From a virus (lineage: Duplodnaviria > Caudoviricetes), in the IMG/VR virus record IMGVR_UViG_3300032224_000903, positions 1 to 64,000 of that record: 64,000 nucleotides of DNA. The stretch is one strand, 5' to 3'. Below, one piece after another: positions 7,857-25,034 of this stretch. The translations under genes were made by a program, and so were the position numbers. Below the pieces are notes generated by a model, which had not been told where the DNA came from, ran no database searches, and was given only the letters and a program-made list of their open reading frames with translations. Position 1 is the first letter of the stretch. Each line of letters opens with the position of its first letter.

Positions 7857-8990
7857 TTGTGTCCGTTAGTTATATTGGGATATGATTAAACCTGATTAGA
7901 TGTGTTTTGATTAATTCCTTTGTTGTTAAATGCGTATGTATTCCATTGATTTATAATTTGGTCTACAGATAAAGGGCTATATAATATTACATATATAAGC
8001 CAGTTTATACCTGAATCAGATTGTTCAATATCAGTCATTATACCACGATTATCGTATGTGACATTCATGTGTGTTGCTTTAACAATATCTTTTGCTGTAA
8101 TATTTTGTTCTGGTTTTAAATTTAATATTTTTCTTAAAGATGCAAGTCTTGAATAAATTTCTGTTGGTTCTTTTAGATATTGAATTTTATCAATTGGTAT
8201 TGATTTAAATTGGTTCCAATAATACTTAGCATCTCGTGGGTCCAAGCCTAAATCTAATAGTTTCTTTTGTACGTCAGGAAACCTTTTATTTGTTTCAGGT
8301 GACACATCAGATGATAATATATTACCACCTAATAAATTTTTAGCCCAATTGATAAAACTACCTTTATCATTGTAATTTAATTTAATATCGGTATTAATTC
8401 TTTCCTCAGGGTGAAAAGGTTTTATTTTAAATAATATGTGTTGAATTTCATGTATCAAAACACTTACAGCTGGGTATTTCGAGGCTATTGCAACATTTAC
8501 GTATATTACATTTGTGGTATTGCCAACCAATTTGTCATAACGTGAACCACTTTCAACCCACGCAATTTCCAATGCGTTTTCTTTCCACTCATATTCCAAT
8601 TTTAATTGACCTAATATGTTATTATATTTTTGGAAAATAGATTCAACATCTTTCATATTCATTTTCCAATTCGCAGCAAATTTGGCTTTTGTGGTTTTAT
8701 TGTTAATCCATTTTTTCCACCATTCTACAGCTTGTGCTAAAGCATTGTCATTATATTTGGCTTTTACTTTATTCCAAGTATCGGGGTCACCAACCAATTT
8801 TTTAGGTGTTATAGGTGCTCTATTATCGTGTTGATATGATGTTGTACCATTATATGTTCCAGATTGAACACCTGTTGATATTTGTTCTGAAATTAAACGT
8901 TTTAATTGACTTTCCGATATTTGAACTTTCATATTACTAATATAAATATAATCATTTATTTAATTGTGTCCGTTAGTTATATTGGGATAT
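7857..8990 (+). repeat. 27-bp perfect direct repeat (7857-7883 and 8964-8990) flanking an inverted gene
   Basis: TTGTGTCCGTTAGTTATATTGGGATAT twice. Confidence 0.9.
7886..8932 (-). CDS. Tagged zincin-like metallopeptidase
   Basis: MKVQISESQLKRLISEQ; LIHEIQH + downstream EPTEIYSRL third-ligand pattern. Confidence 0.65.
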   Translation of the reverse strand: MKVQISESQLKRLISEQISTGVQSGTYNGTTSYQHDNRAPITPKKLVGDPDTWNKVKAKYNDNALAQAVEWWKKWINNKTTKAKFAANWKMNMKDVESIFQKYNNILGQLKLEYEWKENALEIAWVESGSRYDKLVGNTTNVIYVNVAIASKYPAVSVLIHEIQHILFKIKPFHPEERINTDIKLNYNDKGSFINWAKNLLGGNILSSDVSPETNKRFPDVQKKLLDLGLDPRDAKYYWNQFKSIPIDKIQYLKEPTEIYSRLASLRKILNLKPEQNITAKDIVKATHMNVTYDNRGIMTDIEQSDSGINWLIYVILYSPLSVDQIINQWNTYAFNNKGINQNTSNQV

Positions 8991-9002
8991 TTATATGTGT
9001 AT

Positions 9003-10799
9003 ATGAAACTATTTGATATTATAACAGAGGAAACTATACGTGATGTTTCACTCGAAAAACAAAAATTAAAAAAATCAAATTTAGAGAGTAATCCTAAATT
9101 AAGTAATTTAAATTTTACCAATGTTCAATTTGGGTATAATGATGCAAATATACTACTTATAAAAAATTTTTCATGTAAAATCCATAAATGGGTTAGACCA
9201 GATTTTACAAGATATAGTGGAGTAATGCTTGGATCCGGATGTCCGATATGTAGTAAAGAAAGAATGATAAAATCCATGACTAAATCAGACGAGGAATTAA
9301 AAGATGATTTAATCAATAGTCCAAATATAAGAAATTTAACATTTGATAATGTACAATTTAAACGAACACAAGATTCTAAAAATAATACAAAAATAAAAGT
9401 AAGAAATTATTCTTGCTCTAAACATCCCGATTGGTTTAAGGATGAATGGGCGTATTATACTTCCGTTAGAATTGGTGAAATTGGTTGCCCAACGTGCAAT
9501 TACAAGGGTAAAAAAGGTAGTGGTAAAACTGACGAGCAATGGATAACGTGGTTTAAAGAAAAATTTCCTGAATGGGATTATGACATGGGACCTGTTAACT
9601 TTGGGACTACCGAGGATGGTAGTAAAAAAACTGTTAAAAATGTTTATTGTACAATACATAACCACTATTTCCCCGAAGAAGGTAGGGGAAATCTTAGTGT
9701 TTATAAACACGATGCAGGTCAAGGTTGTTGGGATTGTAGTCTTGAACGAGAAAAGGGAAATAAAAATGATGAAAAAAAATGGATAGATAGTCTTAGTAGA
9801 TATAAAAAATTATCTAAATTATATGACTTTTCTAAAAGTAATATCATATTTAAAAAACCATTAACTAACGGACCTGTTGTTACTAACATACATTGTAAAA
9901 AATGTAAGAACGATTTTAGTAAATCAATAAAAAATGCAGATATTACAACTGGCACTTTATATGCATCTACACAAGGTCGAACTAAATGTCCAACATGTAT
10001 AAAAAATAATAATATTAAATTTTGGTCTACTTTTCAAAAAGAATGGTTAAGAACAGTTAAATCAATACATTTAAACGATAAAGGTAAACCAAAATTTAAT
10101 TATGATAGAGTTGATTTTAACAATCCCGATACATTAGAAAGAAAGTATGACCCGATAACTGGTGCAATAATACAAAGTACAAGGCGATTTGAAATTGGAT
10201 GTCCTGAACACGGGTATTTTATTCAAAGAGCAATCGAACATAAAAAGGGAGCAGGTTGTCCTGCTTGTAATGAATCAAAAGGTGAAGAATATTTAAGAAA
10301 TTTATTTTTATCCGAAAAAATAAAATTTGTGAGAGGAACAGAGGCAACATTTGAAGATTTAAAGGGAAAAACAAAACTTAATTTACAATGTGATTTTGTT
10401 TTAAATTTAAAAGATAAAAAAGTTATTGTTGAATATGATGGTATACAACATTTTGTACCAACCTTTGGGTCAACTGAAAGTACTAGAATGAAAAATTATA
10501 TCATCTCATATAGAAATGATGATATTAGAAATAATTTTGCCAAAACAAATAGTGACGGTATTTCCTTAATTCGTATTCCCTATACCATGGAATTTGCTGA
10601 TATTGATAAAGTATTAATTAGAACATTAAGATATATTAAACCAAATACCGTTGTTGAATTAGGTGATTACCCAAAAAGAATGAAACCTAAACCAATATTA
10701 GCAAAAAATCAGGTTGATTTAAGTCAAAGAATTCAAAAACCAAATAGAACTGGACCCAAATTATCATTAATGAATACATTAAAACAAATTGATGTATGA
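9003..10799 (+). CDS. Tagged Zn-repeat (DUF723/Hef-like) PD-(D/E)XK endonuclease, 5 repeats
   Basis: Repeats C-x2-H/C...GCPxC; ESKGE linker; CDF...VEYDGIQHF nuclease motif; ATG 9003 after TATTTATA 8988. Confidence 0.75.
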   Translation: MKLFDIITEETIRDVSLEKQKLKKSNLESNPKLSNLNFTNVQFGYNDANILLIKNFSCKIHKWVRPDFTRYSGVMLGSGCPICSKERMIKSMTKSDEELKDDLINSPNIRNLTFDNVQFKRTQDSKNNTKIKVRNYSCSKHPDWFKDEWAYYTSVRIGEIGCPTCNYKGKKGSGKTDEQWITWFKEKFPEWDYDMGPVNFGTTEDGSKKTVKNVYCTIHNHYFPEEGRGNLSVYKHDAGQGCWDCSLEREKGNKNDEKKWIDSLSRYKKLSKLYDFSKSNIIFKKPLTNGPVVTNIHCKKCKNDFSKSIKNADITTGTLYASTQGRTKCPTCIKNNNIKFWSTFQKEWLRTVKSIHLNDKGKPKFNYDRVDFNNPDTLERKYDPITGAIIQSTRRFEIGCPEHGYFIQRAIEHKKGAGCPACNESKGEEYLRNLFLSEKIKFVRGTEATFEDLKGKTKLNLQCDFVLNLKDKKVIVEYDGIQHFVPTFGSTESTRMKNYIISYRNDDIRNNFAKTNSDGISLIRIPYTMEFADIDKVLIRTLRYIKPNTVVELGDYPKRMKPKPILAKNQVDLSQRIQKPNRTGPKLSLMNTLKQIDV

Positions 10800-12262
10800 A
10801 ATTAATTGATATTATACCCAAAGATATGGAGCTTGATGAGGTTGGTTCACAAAAAACCGATCAAGAGTATTTTAAATCATTAAGTAAACAATACCCAAAT
10901 TGGGATTATAGTAATGCGGAAATTTATAGAAACACAAAAAATGAAAAATGTATTAAAAATGTTAAATGTAAAATACATAATGAGTTTTTCCCAAATTTAG
11001 ATACCATACAAGACGGACTTCCATTAACTAAACACATTACAAGAGGAAGAGGATGTAAAAAATGTGGATATGAAAAATTGAGTAATCAACGTAAAAAAAA
11101 TCCCAAAGAATGGATAAAAGATTTATCTAAGATTAAAAAATTTAAAAATACCGTAGATTTCAGCAATATAAAAATTGATTATACTAATCCTGAATACCCA
11201 TTAATTAGTAATTTTAAATGTAAAATACATAATCGTTTTTTTAACGGAGCACGAGAAAATAGTAAGGGAATACTTGCTTATCAAATTGGTAATAAAGATA
11301 ATATTTGTCCCGATTGTTTGAGTAACTCACAACATTACCGTGTTGCAAAATCAAATGATGAATGGATCGAAGAATTTAAAAAAAATAAAAATAACAAAAA
11401 TTTTGATTTTACTAAAACTAAGGTTTGGACTTTATCGAATAATTATTCATATGCTTTTAATATTTCTTGTAATGTAAAAGATTCTAATGGTAAAAAACAT
11501 GGTATGTTTGGTGTAGAGGATAATAATGAACCAAATGAAGGAGGACTTTTAACAACATTTCTTAAAAACGGTAAGTATCAATGTCCAAAATGTGTCTTAG
11601 ACTATAAACAAAAAAAATTCATCGATAGTTCTAAAATTATACATGGGGACAAATATCTTTACGATAAAGTAGATTTTTCAGATCCAAATACAATGTCAAC
11701 CGGTAAAAGAAAAGTATTAATTGGATGTAAAGATCATGGTTATTTTTTTCAAAATACATCTAACCATTTGAGAGGTCAGGGTTGTCCCGTTTGTAGAGAA
11801 TCAAAAGGAGAAAACTATATTCATGGTTTATTAAAATCTAAATTTGATGGGAAGTATAAAATTGAAAGAGAGAAAAAATTTAGTGAGACGGGTAATTTAG
11901 AATTTGATTTTTTTATACCTGAATTAAAAGTTGTTATCGAATACGATGGGGAAGGTCATTTTTGGCCGATTTTTGGTAGTTCAGAATCCTCTAAACATTT
12001 ATCCTATAATAAGATCTTTAATAATGACAATATAAAAAATAATTGGATTAAAAGTAAAAATAAAAATTTAAATGGAGTTAAATTGATTAGAGTTCCATAC
12101 ACTATGGAATTTAATGAAATCGATAGACCGTTACTACGGGCCATAAAAAACGCACCTCCAAATCAGATTACGTATATTGGGGAATATCCAAGGAGACATA
12201 ACCGTAAGGAAGTTAAAAGTCAATTTAAATTGTCGTTAATTGATACGTTAAAAAATATTTAA
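10796..12262 (+). CDS. Tagged Zn-repeat PD-(D/E)XK endonuclease, 4 repeats
   Basis: GCKDHGYF..NHLRGQGCPVCRESKGE; FDFFIPELKVVIEYDGEGHF. Confidence 0.75.
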   Translation: MKLIDIIPKDMELDEVGSQKTDQEYFKSLSKQYPNWDYSNAEIYRNTKNEKCIKNVKCKIHNEFFPNLDTIQDGLPLTKHITRGRGCKKCGYEKLSNQRKKNPKEWIKDLSKIKKFKNTVDFSNIKIDYTNPEYPLISNFKCKIHNRFFNGARENSKGILAYQIGNKDNICPDCLSNSQHYRVAKSNDEWIEEFKKNKNNKNFDFTKTKVWTLSNNYSYAFNISCNVKDSNGKKHGMFGVEDNNEPNEGGLLTTFLKNGKYQCPKCVLDYKQKKFIDSSKIIHGDKYLYDKVDFSDPNTMSTGKRKVLIGCKDHGYFFQNTSNHLRGQGCPVCRESKGENYIHGLLKSKFDGKYKIEREKKFSETGNLEFDFFIPELKVVIEYDGEGHFWPIFGSSESSKHLSYNKIFNNDNIKNNWIKSKNKNLNGVKLIRVPYTMEFNEIDRPLLRAIKNAPPNQITYIGEYPRRHNRKEVKSQFKLSLIDTLKNI

Positions 12263-12274
12263 TATTTATAAGAT

Positions 12275-12772
12275 ATGAAAAAAGTTATTAAAATGACCGA
12301 GAGTCAACTTAAGAAAATGGTGGAGGACACCATTAAGGAACAAAACCCCATAAACGAACGTTATGAAGAATATAACGATGATTTCGAAGATGATGACCAT
12401 AATGAGTTAGATAATTTATTTACCGACAATTTTAATACCGAGGACGACTATGATGGAGAACCACTTAGAGGTGACGACGAGGGTTTCAGTAATAAAATGA
12501 GAGTTAATCAAATTCAAAAGAAAATTAAATTAGGTGACGTTAATATGGATAGTGGGCATTACATGGCTAAAGATTATAAAAAACATAGAGAGAACGAAAA
12601 AAGAAGATACATCGGTTTAGATCCATTAAGAAATGACACACAACCTGAACCGTATAGTCCTATACGAAATTCAGATATGCCGTTACACAAATACCTTGAG
12701 AAAAAGAAGATGAGCGATTTAGATGAGGACGAAGACATTGCAATATTAGATAATTTATTTACAAAAGATTAA
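12275..12772 (+). CDS. Tagged acidic hypothetical protein
   Basis: MKKVIKMTESQLKKMVEDTIKEQ; TATTTATA 12263. Confidence 0.8.
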   Translation: MKKVIKMTESQLKKMVEDTIKEQNPINERYEEYNDDFEDDDHNELDNLFTDNFNTEDDYDGEPLRGDDEGFSNKMRVNQIQKKIKLGDVNMDSGHYMAKDYKKHRENEKRRYIGLDPLRNDTQPEPYSPIRNSDMPLHKYLEKKKMSDLDEDEDIAILDNLFTKD

Positions 12773-12782
12773 AACAAAATAT

Positions 12783-12893
12783 ATGGGAACAGCAGCAAAA
12801 AAACCACGTGCTATGAGAAGTAGACGTTCAGGAGTTAAATCATTAAATTTAGTAAAAAAGAATTTAGAAATTCTAAAGAAACTTAAGGGGTAA
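12783..12893 (+). CDS. Small basic peptide, 36 aa (not in track)
   Basis: MGTAAKKPRAMRSRRSGVKSLNLVKKNLEILKKLKG*; TAATG overlap with next gene. Confidence 0.6.
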   Translation: MGTAAKKPRAMRSRRSGVKSLNLVKKNLEILKKLKG

Positions 12894-14350
12894 TGAAAAT
12901 CCTAATTTCAGAAATCCAATTAAGGAAAGTAATATTATTGGAACAACGACCTGATAATCTCATGCCGTTTCAAGCAGATAATCCTCATTATACTGGTAAA
13001 GTTGGAGGTGCAATGGAAATTTCACCTAATGATTTAATGAGGGGATCACAAAACGCAAAAAAGGATTTAGAACAAAATGGTCCTTTAGTAATGCTTGTAA
13101 GCTCATTAATGATACCTGGTGGTGCTTTTGCACAGGAATTGTTAGGTTTGTTCATGGGTGCGACAGAATATGCAAAGGGAAATAAAAAAACGGCGGCTTT
13201 CATATCTGTTTTATCTTTAATACCATTTGTATCTCAACTTAGAAAATTAACACCTACATTAAATAATTTAGGAAAAGAAGGAATTGCAACATTATCAAGT
13301 AAATTATCTGGCACAAATAAAATTCCATTAACCACAATTGAACATAAAGCGGTTAATGAGTTGTCATACAATATTGAACCGATTAAGAATAGTCTAACTA
13401 AAATTGAAGAAGCCGTTAAAAGTACAGTTGATTATAAAGGAAGATATATAAGAACTTATGGTAAAGTTAAGTTTCAAGATTTATTTAATAAGTTAATAAA
13501 AGGAGATATAAATAAACAACAATATATTGATGAATTAGTAGGTGGATTAGAAAATACATATAATAAAGTTAAATTTACCACAATATCAGGTGTAAAGTTT
13601 TCTGAGGTTGAAATGGAAGCAATTACAAATATTTCTAAAAATATACTAAATTCTGATGTTAACTTATATACAATTAAATTAATAATTAATGGTGTAGAAA
13701 AAGAAATACCAATTAAAATTGCTTCATATGTTCAAAAGGGAGAACCGGTTATATGGGACGCAGTTGCAGATAGAAAGGCGGGTCAAATATTAGTCAACTA
13801 TCAAAAAGTTAAATCTATGTCTTTAGAAAAATTAACTAATACCCTATCTCATGAATGTGCACATTTAAAAGATTTGTCATTTACCAGTAAAAAAATGACT
13901 GATCAATATGGTAAAATTATTAATACAATTGAAAAAAGTAAAAATGAAGTTCAAAATGCTTTAACTAAATACGGATCAACGTCTCCAGAATATCAACAAG
14001 CATATGCAAAATATTCAAAATATTTTACAAAATATCAGTATCATTATAGAGAAATGTTAGCAAACAATTCAAAAGTTTTACAATCATTATCAAGAAATGT
14101 AAGAGAATTAATTGGACAATTCGGTGTTCCCGAAACTCAAAAAATGGTAAGAACAATGAAAGACGGATTAAAAAAAGGAATACCACAAAATATTGATTAT
14201 TATTTAGGTAAATTGATTGGTAAAGATAATGCTGAATATATTAGACAAATAAGAGTTTATGATAAAAATTTATATCAAGATTTGCTTAAAAAATTATCAA
14301 AACAAATTGATTACATGGAGGAACAATTAAAATTATATCAACAAATTTAA
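12893..14350 (+). CDS. Tagged protein with PT-TG-like helix motif and HExxH peptidase domain
   Basis: MKILISEIQLRKVILLEQ; GATEYAKGNKKTAAFISVLSLIPFV; LSHECAHLKD. Confidence 0.65.
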   Translation: MKILISEIQLRKVILLEQRPDNLMPFQADNPHYTGKVGGAMEISPNDLMRGSQNAKKDLEQNGPLVMLVSSLMIPGGAFAQELLGLFMGATEYAKGNKKTAAFISVLSLIPFVSQLRKLTPTLNNLGKEGIATLSSKLSGTNKIPLTTIEHKAVNELSYNIEPIKNSLTKIEEAVKSTVDYKGRYIRTYGKVKFQDLFNKLIKGDINKQQYIDELVGGLENTYNKVKFTTISGVKFSEVEMEAITNISKNILNSDVNLYTIKLIINGVEKEIPIKIASYVQKGEPVIWDAVADRKAGQILVNYQKVKSMSLEKLTNTLSHECAHLKDLSFTSKKMTDQYGKIINTIEKSKNEVQNALTKYGSTSPEYQQAYAKYSKYFTKYQYHYREMLANNSKVLQSLSRNVRELIGQFGVPETQKMVRTMKDGLKKGIPQNIDYYLGKLIGKDNAEYIRQIRVYDKNLYQDLLKKLSKQIDYMEEQLKLYQQI

Positions 14351-14352
14351 TA

Positions 14353-16299
14353 ATGAAAATACTATTAAGTGAAGATCAATATAATAGATTAATGGATGAA
14401 GGTGGTCCGGTTAGAACTGACGAACAATGGTTGGATGAATTAAAACGTAAGTATCCTAATTGGGATTATAGTAATGCGATAATATACCATGATGGAGTAA
14501 GAAAAAAAATAAAAAATGTTTATTGTTCAATACACAATCATTTTTTTCCTGAAAAAGGTGGATCAAGTATAAATGTAAATGATCAGTTAAATAGAGGAGA
14601 TGGTTGTCGTGATTGTTCTAAAGAATCAAAAGTAGAAAAAATAAGTCAAAAACTTACAAAGAGTAAAGAACAATGGATACAAGACTTATCTAATATAGAA
14701 CATTTAAAAGATAAATGTGATTTTAGTAAATCAAAAATAACATATTCGGATTCTACGAAAAAAATACCAATAGTTAACCACATTTATTGTAAAATACATA
14801 AAAAATATTTTAATGGAATATCGGCATATCAAATTCCCAATCAAAAAGATATTTGTCCTGATTGTTCAAAAGATAATTTTTTTAATAAAAGAGCAACATC
14901 TTTCGAAGATTGGATTAAAAAATTTAAATCCAATAAACAAAATAAAAAATACAACTATAGTAAATCAGAAATTTGGTATGAAGATAAATTGGTTTGGGTA
15001 AACAACATATTTTGTAATGCTAAAGGACTTGATGGAGAAAAACATGGATTTTTTGCAAAGGATGGTGTTTTGGCTGTAGGACACGCAGAAGGACAAGGTC
15101 AATGTCCTAAATGTGTTTGTGAATCTAAAACAAAAAAATTCATTGAGGACGCCAAAATGGTACACAAAAACAAATATGTTTATGATAATGTAGATTTTTG
15201 TGACGATAGTACCATAATAAGAAAAGAAGGTTTAAATAGAATAACATCACATAGAAAAGTTTTAATTGGTTGTAAAAAACCAAATCATGGTTATTTTTTC
15301 CAATATGCGTCTGTCCATAAAAATGGAAGCGGATGTCCAATTTGTAGGGAATCTAAAGGAGAAAATCATATTAAAGAATTATTAACCGGATTAAATATAA
15401 AATTTTTAAGAGAAAAAAAGTTTACAGAATCGGGTAATCTTGAATTTGATTTTTATATTCCTAAATTAAAAACTCTTATTGAATACGATGGTGAACAACA
15501 CTTTTATCCCGTATTTGGGTCCTCAGATTATACAAGAAATTTTAATTACAATAAATTATTTACAAATGATAATTTAAAAAATAGTTTTATAAAAAGTAAT
15601 AAAGATGGTATTAAACTAATAAGAATTCCATATACGATGGAACTCGGTCAAATTGATGGATTATTATTAAAGGAGATAAAAAAGACAAAACCAAATCAAA
15701 TTAACTATATTGGTGATTACCCAAGAAGGCAAGGACGTAAGGAACCTAAAAGTCAATTTAAATTAAATGAAACTAAATTATCATTTGAGAATATTATTTT
15801 AGAAAAGTTAAGAGACATGGCTCCGTCTTTAATTTATCACCATACCACAGAGGAACGTGCTTTGAGTATCATGAATAGTAATATGTTAGTAGGATCAAAA
15901 CAATATGAAGAAGTTTTAAACTTGGACCCAACATTAAAACATTCCAAACATAAAATGATGGTTTCCTTTACTCGTGATAAGAACTTTGTACCTGATGCGT
16001 CTATTGGTAATTCTGGTGACGGTCCACGGATTAAACCAGATACGTTGAAGGTAATCTTTGTTGCGGATAGAAACCGTCTTAAAACACGTTATAGAGTGGT
16101 TCCTTTTGATTATGGTGAATTGGCTAACAAAGCATGGATGGATCCTGTTCCACGTACACATAAGAACCCTGAGGTTGAAGAAAGGGTATTGACGGATAGA
16201 ATATATCCACTTAGACAATACCTTACAAATATCATCTATACAGGTCAAGATCCTGAGATACAGAAAAAAATCGATGAATATCTATCAGGTATAAAATAA
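14353..16299 (+). CDS. Tagged Zn-repeat PD-(D/E)XK endonuclease fused to a C-terminal ART-like domain
   Basis: 4 Zn repeats; FDFYIPKLKTLIEYDGEQHF; after KLSFENIILE an extra ~160 aa with YHHT...VSFTR. Confidence 0.7.
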   Translation: MKILLSEDQYNRLMDEGGPVRTDEQWLDELKRKYPNWDYSNAIIYHDGVRKKIKNVYCSIHNHFFPEKGGSSINVNDQLNRGDGCRDCSKESKVEKISQKLTKSKEQWIQDLSNIEHLKDKCDFSKSKITYSDSTKKIPIVNHIYCKIHKKYFNGISAYQIPNQKDICPDCSKDNFFNKRATSFEDWIKKFKSNKQNKKYNYSKSEIWYEDKLVWVNNIFCNAKGLDGEKHGFFAKDGVLAVGHAEGQGQCPKCVCESKTKKFIEDAKMVHKNKYVYDNVDFCDDSTIIRKEGLNRITSHRKVLIGCKKPNHGYFFQYASVHKNGSGCPICRESKGENHIKELLTGLNIKFLREKKFTESGNLEFDFYIPKLKTLIEYDGEQHFYPVFGSSDYTRNFNYNKLFTNDNLKNSFIKSNKDGIKLIRIPYTMELGQIDGLLLKEIKKTKPNQINYIGDYPRRQGRKEPKSQFKLNETKLSFENIILEKLRDMAPSLIYHHTTEERALSIMNSNMLVGSKQYEEVLNLDPTLKHSKHKMMVSFTRDKNFVPDASIGNSGDGPRIKPDTLKVIFVADRNRLKTRYRVVPFDYGELANKAWMDPVPRTHKNPEVEERVLTDRIYPLRQYLTNIIYTGQDPEIQKKIDEYLSGIK

Positions 16300-16305
16300 A
16301 ATTTT

Positions 16306-16977
16306 ATGATAATCCATAGACCGGCACATACAAGATCAAACCCAAAGAAATCTTGGATTAATTCATATAGGACATTTAGTTTTCCTCCATACTTTGATCC
16401 GAAGTACATCAACTTTAGTTATCTACAAACAATTAATGACGATAGAGTTCAACCAAGAGGTCAAGTGGCAATGCACGAACATAAGAATATGGAAATATTC
16501 GGTTATGTTGTTGAGGGGGTTTGTAGACATACAGATAGTCACGGAAAGATATTAGACATACCAGCAGGTTCAGTTCAAAGAATGTCCTGTGGTTCAGGTA
16601 TAAGACATACAGAAGGAAATACAACCGACACACCAAATCGTTATTTACAATTATGGATTAGACCAAATGTAAAAGACACGGAACCAATACACGAGTGGTA
16701 TCAATTCACAAGGGAAGATAAGTTAAATAGGTTTTGTGATATAACAGAGAAATTACCCATAAAACAGGACGCAAGATTGTTATCGGGTATATTCACAGAA
16801 AACTTTAGTTTTGACCTTAATTCGTCTCGTAGGTACTATCTATACATAGTATCGGGAACTTCCACATTAAACGACATACCTTTAATTGAAGGAGATGGTT
16901 TAAGTTTTGAGGAAGAAAGTAAAATAAATATCACACCTAACGAAGAAACTGAAATCATTTTGTTTGATTTAGCATAA
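16306..16977 (+). CDS. Pirin family protein (YhhW-like)
   Basis: D.V.P....MHEHKNMEI..YV.EG...H.DS.G and GSGIRHTE motifs. Confidence 0.9.
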   Translation: MIIHRPAHTRSNPKKSWINSYRTFSFPPYFDPKYINFSYLQTINDDRVQPRGQVAMHEHKNMEIFGYVVEGVCRHTDSHGKILDIPAGSVQRMSCGSGIRHTEGNTTDTPNRYLQLWIRPNVKDTEPIHEWYQFTREDKLNRFCDITEKLPIKQDARLLSGIFTENFSFDLNSSRRYYLYIVSGTSTLNDIPLIEGDGLSFEEESKINITPNEETEIILFDLA

Positions 16978-23186: not shown

Positions 23187-25034
23187 ATGAAGATTTTAGA
23201 TACCTTATTGGAGGGATTACTACTTGAATTAAGTGGAAGAGAAATATATCAAAAGTATTATTCTAAAATACCATATGAGACATTTTTAGATATTGTAATG
23301 GCAGACCCCAAAACAAACATAGATGGGACAGGTGAATTACTATCAATAGGGAAATACTCAAAATTACTTTTAACATTTTATCAAAAAGGAAGTTTAAGGG
23401 ATGAGGATTTAGCAAAGGCCGAAGAATACTTGGAATGTGTTTATGCACATAACATTTCATTGGATATTGGTAAATTAAAAAATTTAGGGGACCTATATCA
23501 AGTAGTTCAAAAATACCTAATTGCAGACACACAAGATCTTAACGAAATATTAAAGGCACTTGTTATTGATCAAGATTATAAATTACTACATCAAGGTAAG
23601 GATTGGGATTTTTATCAACCTCTTACAGAAAAGGGTTCTGCGTATTTAGGTTTTGCCACCGAGTGGTGTACAGCATGGGGTCAATACTGTCTTAATAAAA
23701 AATATAGAGAAAGACAAAACCATTTTGAAAGACATAACGGACAAGGTCCTTTATTCATTATGATGAGTAAAATTAATCCATTAGACAAATATCAATTTCA
23801 TTTTGAAACAAATCAATATATGGACCCAAAAGATAGTAGAATTAATTTTACTGAATTTTGGCCAAACAAAGATGAAATTAAAAATTATTTCTTCCCATCA
23901 TTAGTTAGAGAAACATCGGAAGAAGAAGTAAAAAGTGAATTACAAAGAATATCTATTTTACCTGATGGAGATGGTATGTTAATATTAAAAAAATCAATTG
24001 GAACTGTTAACAACCCATTAGTGGAAGCAATTATAAATGAAGATGATGATGCGTTAGAAGATTTGATCGATGGTGAGGAGAGAGATGGATCTGTTTATGT
24101 TTATAGTGGTAGACTTATTATACAAGTTGACGGGATACCAGGAGAAGATGCAGAAGGCGTTGAAAGATCAATCGATCAATATAGAGGAGAGTCAAATAAT
24201 GGTTGGGAATGGGTTCATAGTGATATGGAAAATAGATTTTACGATGTAGATGATTATGAAGATGAACTTGAAAAAATTTTTAAATCTTATTATGATAATC
24301 ATAAAATAGAATTACAACAAGAATTGGGTATTAACTCATATGAAATTTTTAAAGAAGATTATTTTGATAACTATCTTGGTGATGATTATGTTAAAGATAC
24401 TTTTGTGGACGACATAACTGATTTATCGTATATAAGTTATGAGGCTGAAAATGATAGAGAAGCGGATGCAATTGAAAAGTATTTGTCTTTTGGTTCTTCG
24501 GATGAACTTAATTTTTCGGTTGTTTTCTTAGTACAATTTTTAATTAAAAGAAATATTGTTGGACTTGGTGGAGACTATGATTGGACAATACAAGACATGG
24601 TTAGTAGTTATATTAGTCATTATAGTTTAACAATTGAAATAGAAGAACCGGTTTATAATTACGAAACAACCTATCCAAAATATGGTGACAATAATTACAT
24701 TACAAAAAGTACCGACCAACATTTTGGTAAATTATTAGATGACCCTGAAACAAATCATCAATGTGTTGAGTTAAGAAAACAATTAAATTACATTATTAAA
24801 ACTTTATTTAAAGGATCTACTAATTTTGAAAATGATCATGTAAAAATTAAGTTAAAATCAAATAAAATTGATTGTGAAAAAGGAACAGTTAATATTGAAT
24901 TTGTAAATAAAAATACCGGTCAGGTTTTCTATAACAATAATGTTAAAATTGAGAATTTACCGAGATATGCAACTAACTATGAATTAGATTTAAAAGAATC
25001 TAAATTAAAATTGAGTGCTTTAATTTATAAGTAA
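23187..25034 (+). CDS. Tagged hypothetical protein with conserved WCT-motif domain
   Basis: MKILDTLLEGLLLE; ATEWCTA...KYQFHF; C-term LKESKLKLSALI. Confidence 0.75.
   Translation: MKILDTLLEGLLLELSGREIYQKYYSKIPYETFLDIVMADPKTNIDGTGELLSIGKYSKLLLTFYQKGSLRDEDLAKAEEYLECVYAHNISLDIGKLKNLGDLYQVVQKYLIADTQDLNEILKALVIDQDYKLLHQGKDWDFYQPLTEKGSAYLGFATEWCTAWGQYCLNKKYRERQNHFERHNGQGPLFIMMSKINPLDKYQFHFETNQYMDPKDSRINFTEFWPNKDEIKNYFFPSLVRETSEEEVKSELQRISILPDGDGMLILKKSIGTVNNPLVEAIINEDDDALEDLIDGEERDGSVYVYSGRLIIQVDGIPGEDAEGVERSIDQYRGESNNGWEWVHSDMENRFYDVDDYEDELEKIFKSYYDNHKIELQQELGINSYEIFKEDYFDNYLGDDYVKDTFVDDITDLSYISYEAENDREADAIEKYLSFGSSDELNFSVVFLVQFLIKRNIVGLGGDYDWTIQDMVSSYISHYSLTIEIEEPVYNYETTYPKYGDNNYITKSTDQHFGKLLDDPETNHQCVELRKQLNYIIKTLFKGSTNFENDHVKIKLKSNKIDCEKGTVNIEFVNKNTGQVFYNNNVKIENLPRYATNYELDLKESKLKLSALIYK

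Follow-up and report, generated by a model that had tools for sequence, protein, structure and literature searches.

Free-standing homing endonucleases are thought to be cytoplasmic and to act late in infection, and they must spare the genes beside their landing site. Three nuclease genes in a 64,000-nucleotide stretch of phage DNA (the whole stretch analysed here, hereafter the window) raise the question of why such enzymes would carry a short leader at the N-terminus and a conserved tail at the C-terminus. The leader is present at the start of all three proteins, as an earlier note on the sequence had described. Our preferred answer, which we consider likely on the strength of sequence comparisons, is that these are three free-standing homing-endonuclease-type genes whose cassettes are exchanged by recombination at leader and tail linkers. 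Coordinates below are window positions, and all features given by position lie on the + strand.

Zinc-finger modules and a Vsr-type nuclease

Nuclease 1 (9003..10799; 598 residues) matches PHROG 559 (7e-26). It consists of a type B leader (residues ~1-10), five Zn modules (28-425), a Vsr-type nuclease, a Y-P-x-R motif and a K-L-S-L tail (586-598). Its stop codon overlaps the start of nuclease 2 (10796..12262; 488 residues), the protein used for structure prediction (AF2 model, pLDDT 83.5) and for the hhalign comparison of modules. In nuclease 2 the leader spans residues 1-15, modules M1-M4 residues 20-336, the Vsr-fold domain residues 333-464 and the tail residues 478-488. Nuclease 3 proper (14353..15804) covers residues 1-484 of its open reading frame, with a leader, four Zn modules, a Vsr-type nuclease and a tail whose last residues are I-I-L-E; the whole frame, including a fused domain discussed below, runs from 14353 to 16299. 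The three frames are paralogs, as the earlier note proposed, with 39-42% identity in our alignment. The E-S-K-G-E linker, the D..EYDG..HF nuclease motif and Y-P-x-R that it listed are present in all of them. Across 32 relatives, S336, G338 and E339 in the linker, D371, E382, Y383, D384, G385, H388 and F389 in the nuclease motif, Y464, P465 and R467, and L479 and S480 in the tail are invariant. The predicted catalytic residues D371, E382, D384, H388 and D411 are likewise invariant in 32 sequences that include the three paralogs.

The AlphaFold check suggested in the earlier note recovers a Vsr-fold nuclease domain. Residues 333-464 superimpose on Vsr (1cw0_A; Z 12.4, rmsd 2.6, 118 aligned residues), on I-Bth0305I (3r3p_A; Z 10.1, rmsd 2.6 over 94 residues) and on 3hrl (Z 8.6); Foldseek alone gave an E value of 3.8e-3 for the nuclease model. 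Neither paralog 2 nor the family profile retrieved anything useful from the PDB in sequence searches. PHROG 559 and PHROG 9084 are both homing endonuclease matches. The nuclease family has 676 homologs, the more distant of which pass Pfam DUF723 and DUF4379, and tblastn against phage records matched 509 records annotated as 'endonuclease' or hypothetical. Fold, PHROG matches and family together bear out the proposal that the proteins are nucleases of the homing-endonuclease type, built of Zn-finger repeats and a Vsr-fold domain. The nucleases are a widespread kind of free-standing homing-endonuclease-type gene (DUF723/DUF4379 Zn fingers with a Vsr nuclease). The leader and tail are absent from the wider family; they are additions particular to this phage lineage.

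The module counts of five, four and four in nucleases 1, 2 and 3 agree with those first noted. Paralog 1 has two extra N-terminal modules followed by M1, M2 and M4, without M3. In hhalign comparisons of module sub-alignments, M1-M2 scored 98.7%, M1-M3 97.2%, M2-M3 98.2% and M1-M4 89.6%, and any module compared with the nuclease domain, as a control, scored 0.1-0.3%. Every module contains C-x-x-H or C-x-x-C followed by C-x-x-C. A Pfam search with the three window proteins gave nothing at E 0.01, and at E 10 only sub-threshold Zn-ribbon rows. PF14311 reached ~10-12 bits on the window proteins against a cut-off of 24.5, with no PF05265 row; PF05265 is listed for the window's own protein in a precomputed table. 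Both cut-offs are passed by four homologs, P0041, P0045, P0034 and P0091, which match the query at E 1e-74 to 1e-41.

Known homing enzymes provide a context for this architecture. The window's family has a Vsr-type nuclease behind Zn-finger modules, the arrangement that the earlier note gave for Hef. Hef of phage U5 and F-LimIII/VII/VIII/X of LIMEstone1 are free-standing in T4-type phages and alternate with other homing endonuclease families at one slot (PMC2988022, PMC3296691). No Hef protein has been reported to be fused in frame to the next gene, or to have a leader resembling a capsid-targeting sequence or a conserved tail at its C-terminus. I-Bth0305I (PDB 3r3p), the EDxHD prototype, shares the Vsr-like catalytic fold and has a conserved acidic/His set of its own (PMC3239194). 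Its gene lies in an intron and its DNA binding relies on NUMOD-like regions, whereas the window nucleases are free-standing genes with 4-5 Zn modules and have E-x-D-G-x-x-H instead of a literal E-D-x-H-D. Variable Zn-finger arrays are a recognised trait of phage homing endonuclease genes (PMC10448857). The CapR/DUF723/DUF4379 genes in the 'HEG islands' of Barth et al. (PMC10448857) likewise vary in module number, with recombination between repeats, and both those genes and the window nucleases cluster where identity between phages breaks. The genes in the islands are mostly of the T5orf172 (GIY-YIG-like) type, come from vibriophages and lack a leader (PMC10448857). Those in the window, by contrast, have a Vsr-type nuclease, and their cassettes end in leader and tail codons.

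Leaders, tails and linkers

Neither megablast of the region nor tblastn of a conserved 474-residue neighbour gave a match among phage records (50,697 in the megablast search), so no cultured relative is known. Paralog 2 by itself found no relative in IMG/VR; relatives were obtained through the family alignment in metagenomes and through the neighbour gene. The complete 335-kb genome of one relative has one nuclease copy, compared with at least three in the 64-kb window. The genes sit in a hyperplastic variable region of a large T4-like phage. This phage with a T4-like head is probably a jumbo phage of Bacteroidota.

Among the 18,948 residues encoded in the window, the type A leader pattern has nine matches and the type B pattern four, all N-terminal; the patterns were drawn up post hoc, from tags already seen. 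A promoter-like T-A-T-T-T-A-T-A (8988..8995), 7 nt ahead of the first codon of nuclease 1, belongs to a ~45-nt block of promoter and start that is near-identical before seven nuclease genes in five genomes. The promoter block and first seven codons are 89-98% identical to those in the related loci L001, L002 and L004, compared with 64-70% for the gene bodies, and the D-I-I codons do not vary. Leaders have also been exchanged between genes: some are of type A, others of type B, and P0018 has a double one.

The earlier note described the tail as tag-like. A K-L-S-[LF] tail is real, but its likeness to the N-terminal tags is weak and was overstated. An ungapped profile of the tail found no N-terminal tag, and gapped scores of tag N-termini against the tail reach only the ~95-99th percentile of internal 14-mers. 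With such weak support from both tests, we do not call the tail a tag, and we set aside the idea that it is a copy of the type B tag. Synonymous changes occur while K-L-S stays fixed, which suggests that the tail is constrained as protein. The same variation led us to reject, for K-L-S-L, conservation acting purely on DNA as the promoter of the next gene. For the last three tail codons, which abut the promoter motif, DNA-level conservation is possible. A 3' linker (12227..12274) comprises the final 36 nt of the nuclease 2 gene, with its tail codons and stop, and the promoter-like motif of the gene at 12275; it matches, at 90%, the end of another nuclease subtype found in L001. On account of these shared 36 nt and of the joint positions described below, the genes behave as cassettes bounded by leader and tail linkers.

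In T4-type genomes, the short conserved regulatory linkers of PeSL promoter/stem-loop cassettes likewise serve as recombination joints (PMC2839356, PMC4122927). Unlike PeSL, the linkers in the window extend into coding sequence, with leader and tail codons, and joints there therefore make in-frame hybrid or fused proteins.

A credible alternative, which we place somewhat short of an even chance, is that the leader and tail have no role in the nucleases at all. They would be scars of, and substrates for, recombination with the genome's most repeated short sequences, attached to ordinary cytoplasmic homing enzymes made late in infection. The contrast in identity between the promoter with the first codons and the gene bodies, the invariant D-I-I codons and the free swapping of leaders are what such passive ends would be expected to leave. 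There are also precedents, in that free-standing homing endonuclease genes of T4 share or carry their neighbours' promoters (PMC2988022) and PeSL-type linkers mediate shuffling in T4-type phages (PMC2839356). The protein-level constraint on the tail argues against it. So does the retention of leader residues E9 and E15 in at least 90% of the 32 proteins. Moreover, another subgroup of homologs has a second, unrelated leader placed exactly before the ancestral start Met; in IMG/VR neighbourhoods this second leader type has two or three examples, too few to judge.

A slot with three kinds of allele

Cassette exchange, which we favor, is most readily followed at the slot just upstream of a conserved gene that we call YHH, compared across 16 related loci. 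The slot is empty in nine of them (L081-84, L086, L089 and L091-93). Four (L001, L085, L087 and L088) have a GIY-YIG-type gene there, and three (the window, L003 and L090) have a Vsr nuclease fused in frame. The GIY-YIG-type assignment comes from 12 of 25 family members matching PF01541 (best 1e-7); the family profile found nothing in the PDB. The locus of nucleases 1 and 2 (9-12 kb) has no empty allele among the related genomes examined, each of which has at least one nuclease.

A micro-ORF (12783..12893) encoding a conserved, basic protein of 36 residues marks the upstream side of the hot spot, and its stop overlaps the next start (T-A-A-T-G). It is found in 10 related loci with five different genes after it, and all insertions in the hot spot start exactly behind it. 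Between the micro-ORF and nuclease 3 lies a leader-bearing gene for 485 residues (12893..14350). This gene is missing at the same place in L003 and is thus an extra cassette. At the DNA level, the type A leader of nuclease 3 (14353..14400) and that of the GIY-YIG-type slot gene in L001 are 92% identical. At the (L/M)-D-E codons, which mark the 5' crossover, similarity passes over into the nuclease body. The 3' crossover between nuclease subtypes lies in the tail codons.

An alignment of the fusion joint (15775..15822) to L082 (an empty allele), L001 and L090 shows the tail codons of nuclease 3 leading directly into E-K-L-R-D-M of the YHH gene's own leader, with neither a stop nor a separate start. 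The joints fall after the T-A-A-T-G-A-A-A of the micro-ORF (an ATG-AAA start) and within the YHH leader. The YHH domain behind the nuclease (15805..16299; ~164 residues) has 85% DNA identity to its counterpart in L001, and in 13 of the 16 related loci YHH is a separate leader-bearing gene of 173 residues. The flanking genes are 85-95% identical, compared with 64-70% for the nuclease bodies. Our model of the fusion protein is confident to residue ~466; the tail, joint and YHH domain have pLDDT below 50, and the model is therefore uninformative on linker exposure and on the YHH fold.

Majority and parsimony, applied to the alleles in place of a rooted tree, suggest that the slot was filled by insertion rather than emptied by loss. 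For paralog 3, the notion of mobile elements that insert into tag-coding DNA and duplicate it finds direct support, as far as insertion is concerned, in the three kinds of allele and in joints that lie in leader codons. Duplication does not fit: the leader was swapped, since paralog 3 has the type A leader that a GIY-YIG-type gene bears elsewhere.

These observations can be combined in a model. The array of Zn-finger modules would read a long DNA site, which the Vsr/EDxHD-like domain would cut. The late-type promoter and first leader codons would form the 5' linker of a cassette, and the K-L-S tail codons with the promoter or leader of the next gene the 3' linker. Recombination inside these linkers would allow cassettes to be gained, lost or exchanged. 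In paralog 3, recombination at the linkers would have inserted the nuclease in frame into the YHH leader. The enzymes would cut a nuclease-free allele and spread by its repair, that is, by homing.

Aeh1 mobE in nrdA and inteins (PMC3045599) are likewise cases of a homing-type gene within a host reading frame that leaves the host gene functional. mobE splits nrdA into two ORFs, and inteins splice themselves out. The fusion in the window, unlike these, is a single fused ORF kept in three diverged genomes, and any release would need a phage protease or an internal start.

Possible capsid loading and the meaning of the leader

A function for the leader would be compatible with cassette exchange and would add to it. 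It is possible, though we hold this with some doubt, that the leader is a capsid-targeting propeptide like the T4 CTS and that the nucleases are built into the prohead core. A gp21-like protease would trim them at L/I-x-E, at the N-terminal end and in most members also before the K-L-S tail, and, ejected together with the DNA, they would cleave a rival or resident genome ahead of any gene expression. G001 and G002, two relatives that have this locus too, carry genes for a PF03420 prohead protease (E 5e-21 and 6e-23) and for a gp23-type capsid protein (E 2e-63), along with an acidic scaffold-like ORF, although these genes are known from the relatives and not from the window's own contig. In the window ORFs, 14 of the 22 occurrences of [LIVM]-x-E-Q fall within the first 25 residues, with 2.2 expected. 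[LIVM]-x-E is found in the leader of 32/32 family members and right before the tail in 23/32, but no Glu precedes the tail in paralogs 1 and 2, and these motif tests were post hoc, made after the data had been seen. The absence of leader and tail from the wider family and the disorder of the leader region in the AF2 model are also consistent with a propeptide, although the leader might merely travel with the promoter-start linker.

The T4 internal proteins and Alt are unrelated cargo with a common 10-residue CTS, cut after L/I-x-E by gp21 (PMC9026906, PMC3012670). Alt is trimmed at both ends, and ten CTS residues are enough for the packaging of foreign proteins such as EcoRI and staphylococcal nuclease (PMC9026906). 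The window resembles this system in having a short N-terminal leader, ending in [LI]-x-E, on unrelated proteins. It differs in that no natural cargo of T4 is known to be a homing endonuclease; nucleases were packaged only artificially. Because of the gp21-type protease and gp23-type capsid protein of the relatives and the conserved L/I-x-E motifs, loading of the nucleases into the capsid through the leader, which would be the virion delivery proposed in the earlier note, is plausible. A fuller scheme, which on present sequence evidence we regard as rather unlikely, would join capsid targeting, protease trimming and ejection with release of the YHH protein; most family members would then have a propeptide at the C-terminus as well. 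The nucleases would then cut related or competing genomes ahead of gene expression. The gp21-like protease would resolve the nuclease-YHH fusion at the rebuilt I-L-E/K-L-R-D-M site, between E and K, and leave a mature YHH protein identical to that of the empty allele.

It is improbable that the nucleases have been domesticated, no longer home and serve the phage in host DNA degradation, competitor exclusion or DNA-binding regulation: the constant presence of nucleases at 9-12 kb in every related genome seen, the predicted catalytic set intact in 32/32 sequences and the co-option of homing endonuclease Zn-finger domains as regulators elsewhere, such as CapR (PMC10448857), would suit this, but subtype (A, B or C) and number (one to three copies) vary between genomes, long multi-module recognition fits rare sites and not bulk degradation, and the slot is shared with a GIY-YIG-type gene, as is typical of selfish elements.

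As homing cassettes, which is how we read these genes, they provide a natural case of homing-type genes beginning with a leader that is common to many further proteins of a phage whose head is of the T4 type. One of them sits in frame inside the leader of another gene in three diverged genomes, and the locus offers empty, GIY-YIG-type and Vsr-type alleles of a single site. Even without packaging, gene cassettes here use a coding leader sequence as their recombination linker. Should the leader prove to be a capsid-targeting propeptide, the three enzymes would become the first homing nucleases known to be packaged in nature. Resolution of the fusion by the same protease, if true, would be a protein-level counterpart of intron and intein splicing that makes the insertion harmless, and the fusion would show a new route by which a selfish gene can stay silent, through release by the head protease.

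Zn-module arrays and the Vsr-like nuclease domain

The window is densely coding, with a G+C content of ~30%. Its three nucleases, encoded on the plus strand by the ORFs at 9003-10799 (598 aa), 10796-12262 (488 aa) and 14353-16299 (648 aa), are paralogs with 39-42% identity in alignment. When they are aligned with 29 metagenomic relatives of 44-64% identity (32 proteins in all), the Cys/His ligands of the Zn modules, the linker S-x-G-E, the nuclease motif (D371, E382, Y383, D384, G385, H388 and F389), D411, Y464, P465 and R467, as well as L479 and S480 in the C-terminal tail, are all invariant. Profile-profile comparison of the paralog 2 module sub-alignments gave 98.7% for M1-M2, 97.2% for M1-M3, 98.2% for M2-M3 and 89.6% for M1-M4, versus 0.1-0.3% for any module against the nuclease domain. 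Paralog 1 has two additional N-terminal modules and lacks M3. The earlier note had described three Zn-repeat nuclease paralogs with 5, 4 and 4 modules, and our analysis agrees on both the paralogs and the counts, apart from the proposed likeness of the tail to a tag.

The AlphaFold model of paralog 2 has a mean pLDDT of 83.5, with residues 1-18 disordered. Residues 333-464 superimpose on E. coli Vsr (1cw0_A; Z 12.4, rmsd 2.6 Å, 118 aligned), the I-Bth0305I catalytic domain (3r3p_A; Z 10.1, rmsd 2.6 Å, 94 aligned) and the DUF559-type protein 3hrl (Z 8.6, rmsd 2.6 Å, 89 aligned); Foldseek by itself gave an E value of 3.8e-3 for the model. All three paralogs are assigned to homing-endonuclease families 559 and 9084 in PHROGs. 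A Pfam search of the window nucleases returned no family above threshold; more distant homologs, found at E values of 1e-74 to 1e-41, pass for both DUF723 and DUF4379. Phage homing endonucleases are known to carry repeated Zn fingers of the CapR/DUF723/DUF4379 kind, in arrays whose module number varies (PMC10448857), and the established homing families include the Vsr-like EDxHD lineage (PMC3239194). Therefore, the architecture of the window nucleases, a Zn-finger array followed by a Vsr-like nuclease, is already known in kind.

The N-terminal leader and the C-terminal tail

In the wider nuclease family, the first element is a Zn module and both leader and tail are absent. All 32 close-family proteins carry an N-terminal leader, mostly of type B, which in the nucleases has [LIVM]-x-E at positions 7-9 and 13-15. 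The same motif stands directly ahead of the x-K-L-S of the tail in 23 of them. Synonymous variation in the tail codons leaves K-L-S-L fixed, which argues for constraint on the tail at the protein level. The suggestion that the tail is itself tag-like did not hold up convincingly, its likeness to the N-terminal tags being weak. Among the window ORFs, the type A pattern has 9 matches and type B 4, all N-terminal, and 14 of the 22 [LIVM]-x-E-Q occurrences fall within the first 25 residues (2.2 expected), in tests devised post hoc with the tags already seen.

An unrelated 615-aa protein at 23187-25034 has a type B leader and ends in E-S-K-L-K-L-S-A-L-I-Y-K. Outside the nucleases, this C-terminus is the closest match to the nuclease tail, ranking near the 0.1% level of background, and a class of C-terminal signals may exist. 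Within the nuclease family, P0018 has a double leader, other members show further leader swaps, and P0009 carries another C-terminal fusion. A subgroup of distant homologs (P0036, P0041, P0043, P0046, P0052, P0056, P0063, P0067, P0069 and P0113, and L105 3573-5219) has a different N-terminal extension of 11-20 aa ending in [LI]-x-E; in several members it exactly precedes M-P-K-K, the start of leaderless homologs. The family may have acquired leaders more than once.

Alleles and joints around the YHH gene

Synteny with the window is seen in four metagenomic loci (L001-L004) and 13 IMG/VR loci (L081-L093), and sixteen of these carry the conserved, leader-bearing YHH gene (15805-16299 in the window, joined behind nuclease 3). 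Upstream lies a strongly basic 36-aa micro-ORF (12783-12893), conserved in 10 related loci, that ends in T-A-A-T-G and overlaps the start of the next gene; this coupling is constant. The position directly behind it is a hot spot for insertions, with five different genes there in different genomes. In nine loci the slot is empty, and next after the micro-ORF stands the 173-aa YHH gene, which has a type B leader of its own. In L001, L085, L087 and L088 the micro-ORF is followed by a 405-411-aa GIY-YIG-type gene, whose family keeps a Y...Y-x-G...R...H...E pattern and matches Pfam GIY-YIG in 12 of 25 members (best 1e-7). In the window, L003 and L090, a Vsr nuclease and the YHH domain form a single in-frame fusion.

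Between alleles, DNA identity extends through the micro-ORF as far as A-T-G-A-A-A and returns at the E-K-L-R-D-M codons inside the YHH leader. Nuclease 3 opens with 48 nt that match the leader of the L001 GIY-YIG-type gene at 92% identity, and at the (L/M)-D-E codons the similarity moves to the L001 nuclease. The L090 and window fusions are far more diverged in the nuclease part than in the YHH part, so by sequence comparison one joint at the YHH leader serves different nucleases. The pirin-like gene at 16306-16977, present in the window, L003, L081, L090 and L091 and absent from L001, L082-L089 and L092-L093, is another presence/absence cassette adjoining the YHH gene.

Flanking genes are 85-95% identical versus 64-70% for nuclease bodies, and the last 36 nt of nuclease 2, a four-module type, together with the following promoter are 90% identical to a different nuclease subtype in L001. 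Loci matching 9003-12262 (L081-L093 and L001-L004) hold at least three subtypes (~490-600, 545-584 and 364-436 aa) that have promoter and type B leader in common and occur in varied combinations, as a single copy or two, ahead of the counterpart of the window gene at 12275. That gene (12275-12772) encodes 165 aa versus 422 aa in L001 (7295-8563), where it includes an endolysin-like peptidoglycan-binding stretch (PHROG matches ~1e-9); the window copy retains the ends only. A leader-bearing minus-strand gene at 7886-8932, between 7883 and 8957, is absent from L001, L002 and L004, whose flanks overlap there on one repeat copy, consistent with an insertion. Vsr-type nuclease copies number one in a complete 335-kb relative versus at least three in the window.

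Probable homing-type cassettes and the question of capsid delivery

The best explanation, which we hold to be probable, is that the nucleases are homing-endonuclease-type cassettes in a hyperplastic region of a phage with a T4-like head. The cassettes would recombine at linkers coding for leader and tail, and one of them, nuclease 3, would have inserted in frame in the leader of its YHH neighbor.

By analogy with T4, the nucleases might be head cargo delivered by the capsid, a reading we regard as a real possibility, though less likely than not. Two jumbo-sized relatives with the nuclease locus, G001 (335,630 bp; L087/L095/L100) and G002 (L085/L094/L099), encode a T4-type head module, in which a Peptidase_S77 prohead protease of the T4 gp21 type is accompanied by a gp23-type major capsid protein and an acidic, scaffold-like ORF; the 89.7-kb contig that holds the window is probably part of a genome of this type. 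Their protease begins with G-I-L-I-E, recalling L-I-E near the T4 gp21 N-terminus. In T4, gp21 cleaves after L/I-x-E and both ends of Alt are trimmed; ten leader residues are enough to load foreign proteins, including nucleases, into the head, whose internal proteins are diverse and have the leader alone in common (PMC9026906; PMC3012670). The fusion joint reads I-L-E | K-L-R-D-M versus L-L-E | K-L-R-D-M in the empty allele, and cleavage there would give the same mature YHH protein; the fusion model is uninformative past residue 466. Equally, the leader could be carried along with the promoter-start linker, in which otherwise diverged nuclease genes are 89-98% identical.

The pattern of alleles and joints matches that of free-standing homing genes that replace one another at one slot, where segH and hef take the places of mobC and mobE (PMC2988022). 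It also resembles the shuffling mediated by PeSLs, which are short conserved linkers (PMC2839356), although in the window lineage the linkers are partly coding.
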